Below are positions 40,851-46,702 of a stretch of 64,000 bases of DNA, one piece after another. The stretch is from Atopobium sp. (GTDB taxonomy: Bacteria > Actinomycetota > Coriobacteriia > Coriobacteriales > Atopobiaceae): the NCBI GenBank assembly GCA_018380095.1, contig JAGZUI010000001.1, positions 172,111 to 236,110 on the forward strand. Reading direction: 5' to 3'. The translations under genes were made by a program, and so were the position numbers. The notes under the pieces were generated by a model. That model was not told the origin of the DNA, did no database searches, and was given only the letters and a program-made list of their open reading frames with translations. Position 1 is the stretch's first letter, and each line of letters starts with the position of its first letter.

Positions 40851-42368
<1,518 letters not shown>

Positions 42369-43118
42369 TTATGAGAACACGAGGATAACAACAATTACTG
42401 CAACACCAAGAATCATCAAAGCAAAGTCTGATGGAGCCAAAGGATAGCGTTTAAATGCAGATGAAGCGTTCCTTAAATAGAAACCTCGTTGCTCAGCTGC
42501 AAGTGCCGAAGCATCAGCTTTTTTAACGGAACTTACCAACAAAGGAACAATCAAAGGCATGGTGAGCTGGAGCTTCTTAATTGGATTTTTGGTATCAAAC
42601 TCAACGCCACGAGCCATCTGAGCCTCCATAATATGGTTCATCTCGGAAGCAAAGACAGGCACAAAGCGCAAAACAGTTGCAATGGTAAACGCATAAGGAT
42701 AAGGAACATGCGCGACTTCTACCAGCGCATTCATGAGGTCTTCTACGCGCATAAGCGAGAGCATAGAAAGCAGCGGCAGTGCCAGCGCAATTGTTTTTAG
42801 GGCAACGTTAAAGCCGCGCTCCAAACCACCTACCGTGATGAATAAAAAGAGCGTTTGACCAGCAGGGGCAACAAGCGTCTGTACAACACACAAGATAAGA
42901 CCTAAGACAGCAAAGCCAAATACCAGCTTAAAAGTCTTCTGAGCATTCTGTGAGACAACTCCCACGCAAATAGTGAGCGCGAGCACTGCAAGCACCTCAA
43001 GCGTTCCTTGGGCGGCAAAGGCGGCCACAAAGAGCTCAAGCGCAAACACAAGCTTGGCCACAGGATTTGCCTTATGAAGGAAGCTTGTTCCTTCGGTGTA
43101 ATCAATAACACTACCCAC
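42369..43118 (-). CDS. ecfT: ECF transporter transmembrane T component (start moved to GTG at 43118, which has an AAGGAGG RBS)
   Basis: CbiQ/EcfT-like 5-6 TM protein; perfect SD AAGGAGG 6 nt upstream of GTG; overlaps ecfA stop by 8 nt. Confidence 0.85.
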   Translation of the reverse strand: MGSVIDYTEGTSFLHKANPVAKLVFALELFVAAFAAQGTLEVLAVLALTICVGVVSQNAQKTFKLVFGFAVLGLILCVVQTLVAPAGQTLFLFITVGGLERGFNVALKTIALALPLLSMLSLMRVEDLMNALVEVAHVPYPYAFTIATVLRFVPVFASEMNHIMEAQMARGVEFDTKNPIKKLQLTMPLIVPLLVSSVKKADASALAAEQRGFYLRNASSAFKRYPLAPSDFALMILGVAVIVVILVFS

Positions 43119-45036
43119 GAGGAGCCTCCTTACCATTAAGCGTTGCTGCAATACGAGCAATCTCAAACTGATGCTGCAATGCGTCAAGCACCTCTGAAGC
43201 ACTGCTAAGCTCAGCAAATGATGAATCCACATGCTCCCCTACAAGCTTTGACAGCTGAATCATCTGAGGAGCCTCAACATACGCTTCCTTCAAAACCTCA
43301 TCTGTCGAGAAGATCTGTGTAACTTCTCCATCATCTAACACGCTACCATGAGCCATAACGACAATTCTTGTGGCAAAGTCCAGCACAACCTCCATGTCAT
43401 GACAGACCATAAGAACTGCACAGCCTTTCTCGCACAGTGATTTGACCATATTCATGACCTGCATGCACTCTTTGTAATCCAGACCCGAAGTTGGCTCATC
43501 AAGCACAAGAATATCTGGCTCGCAGGCAACCACAGATGCAAGTGCTACCATCTGACGCTGACCGCGAGAAAGCATAAACGGCGACGCGTCCGCATCAAGC
43601 CCCATGCGATCAATTACTTCAAGCGCTTTCTTGCGCGCATCTTCTGCAGACGCAGCCTTGAGCTCAAGACCAAACGCAATCTCCTCAAGGACACTCTCTT
43701 TGCAAATCTGGTAATCGGGATTTTGGAACAGCGTAGAGACGTGTTGAGCAATCTGCGACGTCTTCCAATCCTTGCACGATGCACCCTTAATCTGAATATC
43801 TCCAGATCGAGGACGCAACAGGCCATTTACCAGCTTAGTTAGAGTTGTTTTACCTGCACCGTTTTGGCCGACGAGTGCCACAAGCTCGCCAGGGCGCAAG
43901 GTGAGGGAGACGCGCTCAACGCCATCAGTACTCCCCTGATATTTGAAGGTAGCATCAATAACATCAAGAACAGACTGAGTGCTTGGCTGGTCAGCGTCTT
44001 GAAGAACACCAATTCTGTCAAAAGGCCCGCTCGATTCAGCGATCACAGGGCCATCTATTTTTGGAAGATGCGTCTCCCCTGCTAACTCAACGTCATTAGT
44101 AGCTAATGGTTGAGAGCCCTCTGTAAGAGAAATGCTGCGATGCTGGAGAGCGCCTACACAGCACGCAAGCTGCTTGGCGGCTGACTGAACTGATAGCGCA
44201 GTTTCATCGCAGACAGCTCTGTTCGCCTCAGATAACAAGTGAGCATACTCAGACTGATGGGAGAGCTCATAGACGCCCTTTGAGACGCGCACGCAACGAG
44301 GAACATCAACGCCAACCTCTTGCAGTAAATCTACCTGAGAGAACACTTCCTCACAGCTACCGTATGCACAAATGGAGCCCTTGTCCATAACGGCAATCTT
44401 TGAGCAATACTTAGCGAGAAGACCCACTTTTTGCTCAATTACCACAACCGTAATGCCTTTGGTTTTGTTGAGCTCTGAAAGGGTCTGGAAGATTAACTCG
44501 GACGACGTTGGATCCAAAGCAGCTGTTGGCTCATCAAGCACCATAACTTGTGGCTGAAGCGCCAAAAGTGCTGCTATAGCAACCTTTTGCATCTGTCCAC
44601 CAGAAAGAGAAGCAATCTCTCTAAAGCGGAGGTTAGCAATACCAACTGTCTCTAGAGCATAGGTAATGCGTTCTGGAATATCTGCATGAGGAACCTCAAA
44701 GTTCTCAAGACCAAAAAGAAGTTCATCCTCAACAATTGAAGCAACCATCTGCGCGTTGATATCCTGGGTTACAGAACCCACAATTTTAGAGATATCAGTC
44801 AGCGCAACTGTGCAGGTATCCATTCCAGCAACAAGAATCTTTCCAAAGAAACTTCCTCTGAAGTGATGAGGAATAGCGCCGGAAAGTGCAAGAGCAAGCG
44901 TGGACTTGCCTGCGCCAGAAGGACCAACAATACCTACAAAGTCACCCTCCTGAACACTCAGTGACAGCTCATTCAGAGCGTGCACTGAGCTATCAGGATA
45001 GCTATATGACACAGATTGAACTTCAATAATAGACAC
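43111..45036 (-). CDS. ecfA: ECF transporter fused tandem ATPase (EcfA-EcfA' in one polypeptide)
   Basis: 641 aa with two complete ABC cassettes (GPSGAGKST ... LSGGQ ... and GQNGAGKTT ... LSRGQ ...). Confidence 0.9.
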   Translation of the reverse strand: MSIIEVQSVSYSYPDSSVHALNELSLSVQEGDFVGIVGPSGAGKSTLALALSGAIPHHFRGSFFGKILVAGMDTCTVALTDISKIVGSVTQDINAQMVASIVEDELLFGLENFEVPHADIPERITYALETVGIANLRFREIASLSGGQMQKVAIAALLALQPQVMVLDEPTAALDPTSSELIFQTLSELNKTKGITVVVIEQKVGLLAKYCSKIAVMDKGSICAYGSCEEVFSQVDLLQEVGVDVPRCVRVSKGVYELSHQSEYAHLLSEANRAVCDETALSVQSAAKQLACCVGALQHRSISLTEGSQPLATNDVELAGETHLPKIDGPVIAESSGPFDRIGVLQDADQPSTQSVLDVIDATFKYQGSTDGVERVSLTLRPGELVALVGQNGAGKTTLTKLVNGLLRPRSGDIQIKGASCKDWKTSQIAQHVSTLFQNPDYQICKESVLEEIAFGLELKAASAEDARKKALEVIDRMGLDADASPFMLSRGQRQMVALASVVACEPDILVLDEPTSGLDYKECMQVMNMVKSLCEKGCAVLMVCHDMEVVLDFATRIVVMAHGSVLDDGEVTQIFSTDEVLKEAYVEAPQMIQLSKLVGEHVDSSFAELSSASEVLDALQHQFEIARIAATLNGKEAPRG

Positions 45037-45071
45037 AGTGTTCTCCAGGAAATAAGTGCGTATCTAAGAAC

Positions 45072-45665
45072 TTATCGACCCAAAACCTTCTTAAGAGGAG
45101 CCGCAAGAACCTGAACAACAATAGCATTAAAGAATGCAGTTCCCACGATGACAGGAAGCATTACGTAGAAAAGCTCAATAGTTGCACCTTTGGCTGGAAT
45201 AGCAATGGCAGCAAAGATGAGGCCAGAAATAAGTGTGGTTACAAAAGAGCCAATTGCAGGCATTACTGGCTTATCTGCAAGAGCGGACTTTGTGAAGGCA
45301 AACATAACAAGTGAAGCTGCGCCCTCTGCAACAAAATCAGCACCAGGGACAGAGGTGGTGAGCTGAATAACGGTAGCTGCGATAAGACCAATTACCAGGC
45401 TCTGAACAGCGTTTGGCTTAAGCAAAAGAATAGCCAGGCAGAACGAAGAAATAATAAACTCTGGACCAATTCCAATAGCACTAATTGCCTTACCAACAGT
45501 CAGGTTAAGAATAAAACCAGCAGCAATAAGGACGGCAACAAGGACTAGAGAAGTAACGTCCAATACTCCTGCATTTTTTGAAACAGCAACAACACGTGGT
45601 GCCTGCTCTGCAGATCCTGTCTCTGTGCCTGCGGCGTTACCTTCATTGAGATTTTCTGTAGACAT
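45072..45665 (-). CDS. ECF transporter substrate-specific S component; substrate unknown, tryptophan suggested by the leader
   Basis: 197 aa, about 6 TM, first gene of the S-A-T module; preceded by an attenuator-like leader. Confidence 0.65.
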   Translation of the reverse strand: MSTENLNEGNAAGTETGSAEQAPRVVAVSKNAGVLDVTSLVLVAVLIAAGFILNLTVGKAISAIGIGPEFIISSFCLAILLLKPNAVQSLVIGLIAATVIQLTTSVPGADFVAEGAASLVMFAFTKSALADKPVMPAIGSFVTTLISGLIFAAIAIPAKGATIELFYVMLPVIVGTAFFNAIVVQVLAAPLKKVLGR

Positions 45666-45758
45666 ACAAACTCCTTTAACGCAAAACTAAAACGTACAAA
45701 TAAAACTTTTAACAACACGGGTTTCTCGCCATCCGGATTTAGCAAGAAACGTACGCAC

Positions 45759-45786
45759 AAAAAAAGCTCTCGGTCACCCGAGAGCC
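45759..45786 (-). terminator. intrinsic terminator inside the 5' leader of the ECF operon (attenuator)
   Basis: GGCTCTCGG gtga CCGAGAGC then T7 on minus strand, 24 nt after the leader-peptide stop and about 95 nt before the S-component ATG. Confidence 0.75.
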
Positions 45787-45810
45787 TCTAAATGCGTATG
45801 CAGAAGCAAC

Positions 45811-45873
45811 TCATCGCTGACCGGAGAAAGACAAGTTGTTCCACCACCACTGCTGAGTGCATGTAGCGCGCAT
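45811..45873 (-). CDS. putative leader peptide MRATCTQQWWWNNLSFSGQR (three tandem Trp codons)
   Basis: ATG with GGAGGAGG 6 nt upstream; 20 codons including TGG TGG TGG; ends TGA just before the terminator hairpin. Confidence 0.45.
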   Translation of the reverse strand: MRATCTQQWWWNNLSFSGQR

Positions 45874-45913
45874 GATATGTCCTCCTCCCAAGAGCGTAAA
45901 TTGCAATGTAAGA

Positions 45914-45944
45914 AGAATACCATTACTTTGTCAGATTGTGTCAA
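45914..45944 (-). promoter_or_regulatory. putative sigma-70 type promoter for the ECF operon (TTGACA -35, TG-n-TATTCT -10, 19-nt spacer)
   Basis: Perfect TTGACA at 45939-45944 (minus); weak extended -10; located between the rpmA terminator and the leader peptide. Confidence 0.35.
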
Positions 45945-46004
45945 GAAATACATTAAGAAACAAATTAGAAACTGTGAACGGTACGCGTAAGATACCGCGA
46001 GAAA

Positions 46005-46029
46005 CAAAAAAGGGATCCCGAAGGACCCC
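46005..46029 (-). terminator. intrinsic terminator downstream of rpmA
   Basis: GGGGTCC ttcg GGATCCC then T7 on minus strand. Confidence 0.8.
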
Positions 46030-46058
46030 TTGAATGAACTGCGAATGTTCAAGAAAAC

Positions 46059-46313
46059 TTATGCCTCAGCAGCAACGACGTTAACGACGTGCTTAGCACC
46101 CTTCTTGAACTCAACAACGCCATCGCAAAGTGCAAAGAGAGTGTCATCCTTGCCGCGACCAACGTTTACGCCAGGAGTGATGTGCGTACCACGCTGACGG
46201 ATGATAATCTGGCCAGCCTTGATTGCCTGACCACCGTAAATCTTAACGCCAAGGCGCTGTGCTTGTGAGTCGCGACCATTGCGGGAAGAGCCGAGACCTT
46301 TCTTGTGTGCCAT
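46059..46313 (-). CDS. rpmA: 50S ribosomal protein L27
   Basis: 84 aa, [16 protein letters not shown]. Confidence 0.95.
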
Positions 46314-46351
46314 AAATGCTACCTGCCTATCTCAATATCAGAAGTGACCAA

Positions 46352-46702
46352 TTACTCTGCAGACTCGTCGGATGCCTTAGCAGCAGCCTTACGAGCGGTA
46401 GGGAGCGCGGTAACCTTCAGCTTAGTAAGGTTCTGACGGTGACCGTTGGCGCGGTGATAGCGCTTACGCTTGTGGAACTTGAAGACGAGGACCTTCTTGT
46501 CCTTGTACTGCTCAAGAACCTCACAGGTAACCTTCTTAGAGGAAAGAGTGGCAGCGTCAGCAACAACCTTCTTGCCGTCGTTAAGCATAAGAACATCAAG
46601 CTTTACCTTATCGCCAGGCTGCGCATCAAGCTTCTCGACGCTGATTACGTCGCCCTTGGCAACCTTATACTGCTTGCCACCAGTTGCTACGATTGCGTAC
46701 AT
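46352..46702 (-). CDS. rplU: 50S ribosomal protein L21
   Basis: 116 aa, MYAIVATGGKQYKV. Confidence 0.95.
   Translation of the reverse strand: MYAIVATGGKQYKVAKGDVISVEKLDAQPGDKVKLDVLMLNDGKKVVADAATLSSKKVTCEVLEQYKDKKVLVFKFHKRKRYHRANGHRQNLTKLKVTALPTARKAAAKASDESAE

Follow-up and report, generated by a model that had tools for sequence, protein, structure and literature searches.

The locus described here lies in a 64,000-nt stretch of an Atopobium sp. genome (GenBank assembly GCA_018380095.1, contig JAGZUI010000001.1, forward-strand positions 172,111 to 236,110), which we call the window and to whose numbering all coordinates refer. On its minus strand, a ∼390-nt intergenic region separates rpmA from an operon for an energy-coupling factor (ECF) importer. 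This region carries a 20-codon leader open reading frame (ORF) with three tandem Trp codons, followed by an intrinsic terminator; together, they form a candidate trp-type attenuator. The operon encodes, in order, an ECF S component, a fused EcfAA′ ATPase, and EcfT, and is followed by obg and nadD.

A sequence-only reading of the window had listed five elements upstream of the S gene, and all five are present. As it stated, rpmA is followed by a terminator-like hairpin (46031–46010), which separates the leader from the rplU-rpmA transcript. The leader ORF runs from the ATG at 45873 to the TGA at 45813–45811; the ORF, its Shine–Dalgarno (SD) sequence, and the three TGG codons are as described, but the spacer measures 7 nt rather than 6 nt. 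The distance of 24 nt between leader stop and terminator holds for the stem GGCTCTCGG counted from 45786, and the S-gene ATG (45665) lies 93 nt past the T run of the terminator, where about 95 nt had been given. The promoter stands only in part. The hexamer TTGACA is found at 45944–45939, but GGTATT, at a spacing of 17 nt, makes a weak −10 partner for it, and for this reason, a promoter before the leader ORF is, on sequence grounds, no more than plausible. Better −10 candidates are offered by an extended TGgTATTCT (45922–45914) and by CTGACA with TACATT at a spacing of 18 nt (45934–45905). The coordinates of all features are collected in Table 1.

Table 1. Positions of the leader elements, predicted RNA segments, and genes in the window
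Feature	Position	Strand	Remark
Leader ORF (trpL-like), 20 codons + TGA	45811..45873	minus	peptide MRATCTQQWWWNNLSFSGQR
SD of leader ORF GGAGGAGG	45881..45888	minus	7 nt before ATG
Three tandem Trp codons (UGG ×3)	45841..45849	minus	regulatory codons
Segment 1 GUGGAACAACUUGUC	45830..45844	minus	pairs with segment 2 in ribosome-free RNA
Segment 2 GAUGAGUUGCUUCUGC	45800..45815	minus	holds stop codon
Predicted antiterminator, 5′ strand CUCCGGUCAGCGAUGAGUUGCUUCU	45802..45826	minus	includes CGGUC box 45823–45819
Predicted antiterminator, 3′ strand	45767..45789	minus	whole terminator hairpin region; includes GACCG box 45775–45771
Intrinsic terminator	45759..45786	minus	stem 45785–45778/45773–45766, loop GUGA, T7 45765–45759
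Promoter-like region	45905..45944	minus	consensus matches only
11-bp hairpin GTTTCTTGCTAAATCCGGATGGCGAGAAAC	45721..45750	minus	between terminator and S gene
ECF S component	45072..45665	minus	197-aa membrane protein; fringe relative of TrpP family
Fused EcfA-EcfA′ ATPase	43111..45036	minus	641 aa; TIGR04520 and TIGR04521 above cutoff
EcfT (CbiQ family, PF02361)	42369..43232	minus	longest ORF
rpmA terminator-like hairpin	46010..46031	minus	9-bp stem + T run
rpmA	46313-46059	minus	followed by terminator-like hairpin
rplU	46702-46352	minus	upstream of rpmA

Conservation of the Trp-Codon Leader

We compared 80 of the more than 500 loci at which a relative of the S protein is encoded. The sample covers the Lancefieldella parvula group, L. 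rimae, Olsenella, Tractidigestivibacter, Thermophilibacter, “Atopobium” fossor and deltae, Collinsella, Enorma, Coprousia, and Gardnerella, the last of which belongs to another class (Actinomycetia) than the Coriobacteriia loci. Seventy-seven of the loci could be evaluated; in the remaining three, a contig end leaves less than 150 nt upstream. A Trp-run leader precedes the first S gene in every evaluable locus, with three consecutive Trp codons in 76 and two in one, and an SD sequence and an ATG were found for all 77 leaders. The 51 distinct leader peptides are 19–49 aa long, and the stretch before the Trp run is free in both length and sequence. In contrast to this freedom, exactly nine sense codons separate the Trp run from the stop in 72 of the 77 leaders (12–13 do so in some Gardnerella). 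The Trp run, the small ORF, and the hairpin are kept in orthologous regions from at least nine genera, which bears out the sequence-only reading on this point.

These counts, together with the excess of TGGTGGTGG over expectation (four occurrences in the window against 0.28 expected), exclude chance as the source of the Trp run. The three other TGGTGGTGG sites in the window lie inside long ORFs beside Gly runs, where they fit a GGT-GGT reading frame.

Downstream of the leader, all loci have the same operon, namely an S gene, in many cases a second S paralogue, and then EcfAA′ and EcfT, set amid differing neighborhoods. The rpmA/obg neighborhood (window 40851–46702, compared with L001–L024) is limited to Lancefieldella and two Olsenella loci; therefore, the leader travels with the transporter and not with the ribosomal genes. 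Because the cassette also occurs in Gardnerella, in the class Actinomycetia, at 43–49% identity, the sequences suggest that the whole cassette, leader included, has been horizontally transferred.

The leader with only two Trp codons belongs to Collinsella provencensis (L050, 2897–2932; ..NNWWRSFRFAGQR), where the terminator stem is also shorter; this natural variant would be useful for testing how the response depends on codon number. Two loci titled Prevotella sp. and Alloprevotella sp. (L039 and L075, both bins of metagenome-assembled genomes [MAGs]) nonetheless carry Olsenella-type leaders and S genes, and contig mis-binning is the likely source of these odd genus labels.

Terminator and 1:2 Helix

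The window terminator folds as a GC-rich stem of 8 bp (−15.0 kcal/mol), to which G45786 adds a G·U extension. Upstream of it, segments 1 and 2 pair to form a 1:2 helix (−14.0 kcal/mol), with the second and third Trp codons lying in segment 1. In the fold of the ribosome-free window RNA, the 1:2 helix and the terminator are present together.

Both structures are well supported by comparison. We aligned 33 diverse leaders (alignment A2), in which the three Trp codons are invariant. In the terminator, pairing holds in 93% of the alignment cells, and both bases have changed in 8 of the 13 pairs. Within the core of the 1:2 helix (columns 20–26 with 58–64), six pairs show double changes, exemplified by GGCGUGA/UCACGCC vs. 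GGCGCGA/UCGCGCC. Taken jointly, the two helices have both-side changes in 14 of 23 pairs, the observed values were matched in 0 of 500 shuffles, and slid registers collapse. A partner-swap test gave the same picture (0 of 5,000 permutations for the 1:2 helix and likewise 0 of 5,000 for the terminator). A hairpin followed by a T-rich run, mostly of 4–7 T, is kept in all lineages. A consensus terminator scan of the window made no call at 45759–45790 despite the 8-bp stem and the T7 run found by folding, probably because the stem continues into the T run through A-U and G-U pairs (AGAG with UUUU).

Predicted Antiterminator

We modeled the stalled state by making 29 nt around the Trp codon in the A site unavailable for pairing. 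With the ribosome placed on the Trp codons in this way, the minimum free energy (MFE) structure of the window RNA is an antiterminator of ∼20 bp (−24.9 kcal/mol vs. −15.0 kcal/mol for the terminator alone). In it, CUCCGGUCA..C..UGAG..GCUUCU (45826–45802) is predicted to pair with AGAGGC.CUCGG.UGACCG.GAG (45789–45767), using up the 5′ arm, the loop, and the 3′ arm of the terminator. When the ribosome is placed at the stop codon instead, the terminator is back. As modeled, the window folds thus show the textbook three-state behavior of a trp-type attenuator. The mutually exclusive structures that the sequence-only reading had anticipated are predicted, with Trp codons in segment 1, but the antiterminator lacks covariation.

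The conserved part of this pairing is a short outer helix. In the CGGUC box inside the ORF, GUC is invariant and the remaining C and G are nearly so, and the complementary GACCG across the terminator loop and 3′ arm is likewise invariant. The CGGUC:GACCG helix is 87% paired in register vs. 20–58% when slid. RNAalifold, run on the truncated “stalled” RNA, returned this 5-bp helix as the sole consensus helix, because MAFFT leaves the variable spacer unaligned. GGUC is kept across the codon readings G-R, G-Q, and R-R, and since the amino acids differ, the constraint is on the RNA and not on the peptide. The invariant nucleotides of the terminator loop, which are hard to explain without a second partner, also indicate a constraint on the RNA. 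Every leader also shows complementarity between its stop-codon region and the terminator 5′ arm (mean, −10.3 kcal/mol; range, −5 to −15 kcal/mol); control segments, though shorter, reach about −4 kcal/mol.

We also computed structure ensembles for transcripts that stop short of the terminator 3′ arm, using the window and 40 leaders. The predicted occupancy of the 5′ arm by upstream partners was 0.39 in free window RNA (mean of the 40 leaders, 0.57), 0.65 with a ribosome stalled on the Trp codons (mean, 0.68), and 0.44 with a ribosome at the stop (mean, 0.54). Wilcoxon tests gave P = 0.001 for stalled vs. free and P = 0.011 for stalled vs. stop, values that are indicative only, the sequences being related.

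Predicted Pairing of the Leader Ribosome-Binding Site

In most lineages, the ribosome-binding site (RBS) region of the leader is predicted to pair with a downstream segment of the same leader (in the window, 45879–45903 with 45806–45832). The partner differs between lineages, and besides the window, the pairing was predicted for lineages represented by L021, L024, L025, L030, L059, and L026. In Lancefieldella, the SD GGGAGGAGGAC pairs with GUCUUUCUCC; in Olsenella-type leaders, GCGCCA pairs with UGGCGC; and in Collinsella, GCAUCACG..GCCACCA, which flanks the SD, pairs with UGGUGGC-GUGAUGC, the Trp-Arg-Asp-Ala codons. Judging from these folds, the pairing may limit translation of the leader to a single round. 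In the window, the predicted antiterminator faces competition from this pairing as well.

Collinsella-type loci carry a further element between the terminator and the S gene. The motif GCATCACGCGCCTCC, present in L059 (2979–2993) and in 22 other such loci, repeats the GCATCACG that stands a short way before the leader SD. The motif also complements the leader codons for Arg-Asp-Ala, and the CCUCC within it could act as an anti-SD.

The S Component and Its Probable Substrate

The S protein of the window shares 95–98% identity with proteins from Lancefieldella (Atopobium) parvula and from related MAGs and is labeled “hypothetical protein” in the sources. Its single Pfam match is TrpP (PF17099), over profile positions 4–168 of 169. 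Homologues ∼50% identical to the window protein pass the TrpP threshold (30.6, 30.4, and 27.5 bits), and 8 of 16 members of the S family match TrpP, with no other Pfam family matched. The sequence-only reading had suggested a TrpP-like substrate, tryptophan or an indole-derived compound. TrpP is indeed the only Pfam family resembled, and ThiT, FolT, and RibU gave no Pfam match, but the window protein itself falls below the threshold. No NCBIfam model matched it, a PDB sequence search returned nothing significant, and a profile search of a 5.8-billion protein set gave, among the matches listed, only close relatives and no named Firmicutes TrpP. The “TrpP” of Corynebacterium glutamicum was considered as a relative and rejected, being a member of the SdpI family rather than an ECF S component.

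The AlphaFold (AF2) model of the S protein (pLDDT 81) has six long helices and one 4-residue helix, with a disordered N terminus. Its best structure matches in the PDB are RibU (3p5n), TmRibU, ThiT, FolT, BioY, and PanT (TM 0.45–0.64, with weak E-values). On this model, the protein has the fold of an ECF S component, and by sequence it is a fringe relative of Pfam TrpP. The energizing module EcfA/A′/T adjoins the S gene downstream, an arrangement kept in all loci. The regulatory Trp codons and the family resemblance to TrpP are two independent lines that together point to tryptophan, which the importer most likely takes up.

At many loci, two tandem, diverged S paralogues (41–51% identity to the window protein) stand behind one leader and before a single EcfAA′-EcfT (L022, L023, L026–L029, L034, L039, L042–L045, L047, L049, L051, L056, L058, L063, L071, L074, L075, and L077). 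The two paralogues may reflect two related substrates.

Proposed Mechanism and Its Alternatives

Judging from its sequence, the locus is very probably a classical ribosome-mediated transcription attenuator that senses charged tRNA-Trp and controls a dedicated S/EcfAA′/EcfT importer operon. The attenuation layout put forward in the sequence-only reading is supported by the RNA structures, by their conservation, and by the resemblance of the S component to TrpP. The ORF, its Trp codons, the terminator, the 1:2 helix, and the operon are present and conserved. The register of the antiterminator is inferred, as are translation–transcription coupling, the sense in which the operon is regulated, and the cargo of the importer.

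Transcription would start ∼25–45 nt upstream of the leader ATG, and the 20-codon leader would be translated by a ribosome that follows RNA polymerase closely. With ample Trp, this ribosome would reach the UGA and cover segment 2 together with the CGGUC box; the terminator would form, and transcription would stop at T7. In RNA free of ribosomes, segment 1 would pair with segment 2, and termination would again follow. When Trp-tRNA is scarce, the ribosome would stall on UGG-UGG-UGG and mask segment 1, leaving 45826–45802 free to pair with 45789–45767; with both terminator arms and the loop taken, polymerase would read through into the S gene. The importer would then be induced by Trp starvation. 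Since the layout is kept in all related genomes that could be checked, the importer is most likely switched on when charged tRNA-Trp is short.

The predicted antiterminator may have a distinctive geometry. CGGUC, which repeats the sequence at the top of the 5′ arm of the terminator, may invade through the loop and the 3′ arm (GACCG), and the stop-codon region may take the 5′ arm. A stalled ribosome may thereby license a nested “double clamp” on both arms of the terminator, with the fixed nine-codon spacing setting the geometry. We put forward only tentatively, and regard as rather doubtful, the wider proposal that this structural variant belongs to an unannotated Trp starvation-induced uptake system of Coriobacteriia and Gardnerella, probably horizontally transferred, that serves these host-associated and possibly Trp-auxotrophic bacteria as a key route to compete for tryptophan.

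Several findings weigh against attenuation as described. The antiterminator shows no compensatory changes, because the CGGUC and GACCG boxes never vary, and its support across genera consists of conserved complementarity. In the partner-swap test, the inner antiterminator helix gave −10.3 kcal/mol with its own partners and −10.1 kcal/mol with others, which shows no partner-specific coevolution. Dinucleotide-shuffled upstream segments sequestered the GC-rich 5′ arm about equally well; this test was not significant because GC-rich arms pair with nearly anything. In the equilibrium MFE structure, only 9 of 40 distinct leaders give up the terminator when stalled, and the remaining leaders need the usual kinetic argument. 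Leaders of the Collinsella aerofaciens type show no occupancy effect or a reversed one. When the window RNA is folded with a 5′ untranslated region (UTR) of ∼35 nt, the SD region GGGAGGAGGAC and GCAAUUUACGCU pair with 45832–45806, and the terminator persists if these 5′ UTR/SD pairs could span the stalled ribosome. We consider such pairing around a stalled ribosome sterically unlikely and read it, from the model, as sequestration of the RBS after the first round of translation. Lastly, the window S protein scores 17.4 bits against a Pfam TrpP threshold of 27.2 bits. The terminator of the E. coli trp leader, too, has the greater stability, and preemptive formation of the 2:3 pairing is kinetic. 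Because control there is also kinetic, the antiterminator results are compatible with attenuation, although they are not proof of the register.

In one alternative, which keeps the same attenuator, the cargo could be another compound that relieves Trp starvation (indole, another indole derivative, or a precursor), and tandem S genes could have differing cargoes. The leader reports only tRNA-Trp charging, the TrpP match is marginal, many genomes have two diverged S paralogues in the operon, and Gardnerella vaginalis reportedly keeps only trpB, that is, indole salvage (PMC4042155). Nevertheless, we think another cargo unlikely, given that TrpP is the sole family matched and that the match covers the full length of the profile. 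An ATP-driven importer for indole also seems unnecessary, because indole crosses membranes unaided. The main control could alternatively be translational or posttranscriptional, through sequestration of an RBS (of the leader or the S gene), reinitiation, or mRNA stability, with a terminator that is constitutive or leaky. The predicted pairing of the leader RBS in most lineages, the CCUCC-containing Collinsella motif between terminator and S gene, and the extra window hairpin (45750–45721) speak for such control. It is nonetheless improbable, as the strong hairpin and T-rich run occur in all lineages, the S-gene SD lies 80–200 nt downstream and is unpaired with the leader in the window fold, and the extra elements are lineage specific.

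The leader could also act as a TnaC-like arrest peptide. Free tryptophan would then be detected by the nascent WWW...GR chain inside the exit tunnel, the ribosome would stall on the stop codon or close to it, and the nine-codon spacing would reflect tunnel geometry. The constant spacing from Trp run to stop (72 of 77), the recurring C-terminal G-R/Q-x pattern, and the R-D pair after WWW in many genera would suit an arrest peptide. The conservation at the C terminus, however, is one of nucleotides (GGUC) over differing residues (G-R, G-Q, R-R), and the R-D pair is missing in Lancefieldella, L022, L024, and Gardnerella, its codons lying in the covarying 1:2 helix. The leader also lacks a C-terminal Pro, what follows it is an intrinsic terminator that has alternative pairings, not a Rho-dependent site, and three tandem Trp codons are a hallmark of starvation sensing; we therefore hold an arrest peptide to be very improbable. 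That a WWW ORF lies beside a terminator by chance, with no regulatory role, is next to inconceivable. The small size of the ORF and nothing else would favor it, whereas the leader recurs in all evaluable loci over two actinobacterial classes although the rest of the peptide has diverged, and the expectation for TGGTGGTGG is well below one per window.

Comparison with Known Systems

The nearest relatives of the proposed attenuator, compared by features and not by sequence, are the trp attenuators of Actinobacteria. Classical Trp attenuators with two or three UGG codons precede the trp operons of Corynebacterium and Streptomyces as well as Streptomyces trpS (PMC1262725), and TrpL of C. glutamicum has three tandem Trp codons (PMC11995493). 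The window leader shares with them a short ORF with tandem UGG codons, a GC-rich terminator with poly-U, alternative hairpins, and the phylum Actinomycetota. Unlike those attenuators, it stands before an ECF importer operon and not before biosynthesis genes or a tRNA synthetase, and its CGGUC box inside the ORF is predicted to pair with the terminator loop and 3′ arm; its hosts, Coriobacteriia and Gardnerella, lie outside the actinobacterial survey (PMC1262725). We conclude that what is new is the target of this trp-type attenuator, a dedicated TrpP-related ECF importer, and its host range of Coriobacteriia and Gardnerella. A full-text search of the literature found no description of a leader peptide before an ECF/TrpP operon, although a 2015 Russian paper on actinobacterial Trp attenuators (cited in PMC4833913) may overlap.

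The proposed segment logic and the placement of the stop codon are those of E. coli trpL, as would be kinetic control with a terminator more stable than the antiterminator. In E. coli, 1:2, 2:3, and 3:4 pairings alternate, the Trp codons lie in segment 1, and a ribosome at the stop codon covers segment 2. The window leader differs in having three Trp codons rather than two and in regulating a transporter. The Rfam Trp_leader family (RF00513) gave no match at E ≤ 10 in 45500–46200; the T-box family (RF00230) gave none there at the same cutoff and none in seven related loci at gathering thresholds. No Rfam 15 family covers the leader element in the window or these seven loci at gathering thresholds. 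Permissive Rfam matches were rejected as chance hits, which fell on the rpmA terminator only.

Among transporters, the obvious comparison is TrpP (YhaG) of Firmicutes, which is also a small membrane protein of the ECF S-component type, and whose family, PF17099, is the only one that the window protein matched. In B. subtilis, trpP has been handled as one of the ECF S components (PMC11487621). Unlike its Firmicutes counterpart, the window S gene heads a dedicated S-EcfAA′-EcfT operon, is probably placed under leader-peptide control, and encodes a protein that falls below the Pfam cutoff. Firmicutes trpP is a solitary gene whose product uses a shared EcfAA′T module, and it is reportedly controlled by TRAP (in B. 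subtilis) or by Trp T-boxes (Sarsero/Yanofsky 2000, Rodionov 2009, and Vitreschak 2008 are said to describe this).

Control of uptake rather than synthesis by a leader peptide with cognate codons has a parallel in the His leader, which controls histidine transporters; those cases differ in concerning another amino acid, Proteobacteria, and non-ECF transporters. Histidine transporters appear among the functional categories of RNA motif-regulated genes in a survey of RNA regulons, where the Rfam attenuator families are essentially γ-proteobacterial and mostly control biosynthesis (PMC3766115). The leader of the tna operon, TnaC, is likewise a short Trp-containing peptide before Trp-related genes, including the Trp permease gene tnaB. 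In TnaC, it is the nascent peptide that detects free Trp; one Trp residue is critical, Pro stands at the C terminus, control is exerted on Rho-dependent termination, and excess Trp induces the operon. None of these traits is seen in the window leader.

Significance

The analysis assigns a probable function, from two independent clues, to a protein family labeled only “hypothetical protein,” and it offers a regulatory logic for an ECF operon of common human oral, gut, and vaginal Actinomycetota (Lancefieldella, Olsenella, Collinsella, and Gardnerella). It would extend leader-peptide attenuation to the control of ECF importers and to Coriobacteriia, an extension unrecorded in Rfam 15 or in the literature searched. 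Tryptophan is contested at mucosal surfaces via the IDO/IFN-γ/indole axis, and Gardnerella reportedly lacks de novo Trp synthesis and has indole salvage only (PMC4042155); therefore, a starvation-induced Trp importer would be physiologically relevant. Being compact and natural, the leader could further be used to sense tRNA-Trp charging in these poorly tractable organisms. The result is valuable because it annotates a “hypothetical” transporter that is widespread in host-associated bacteria and provides a clean, testable system, which a specialist may find satisfying rather than startling.

Minor Features of the Operon

Over ∼120 nt (43111–43232), the end of ecfAA′ is shared with the longest EcfT ORF, whose CbiQ domain begins only at residue 49; the true start is probably an internal codon further downstream, near the ecfAA′ stop. 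The 11-bp hairpin between the terminator and the S gene has no T run after it and is absent from a close relative, L014, where the distance from the leader stop to the S gene is 80 nt, as against 146 nt in the window.

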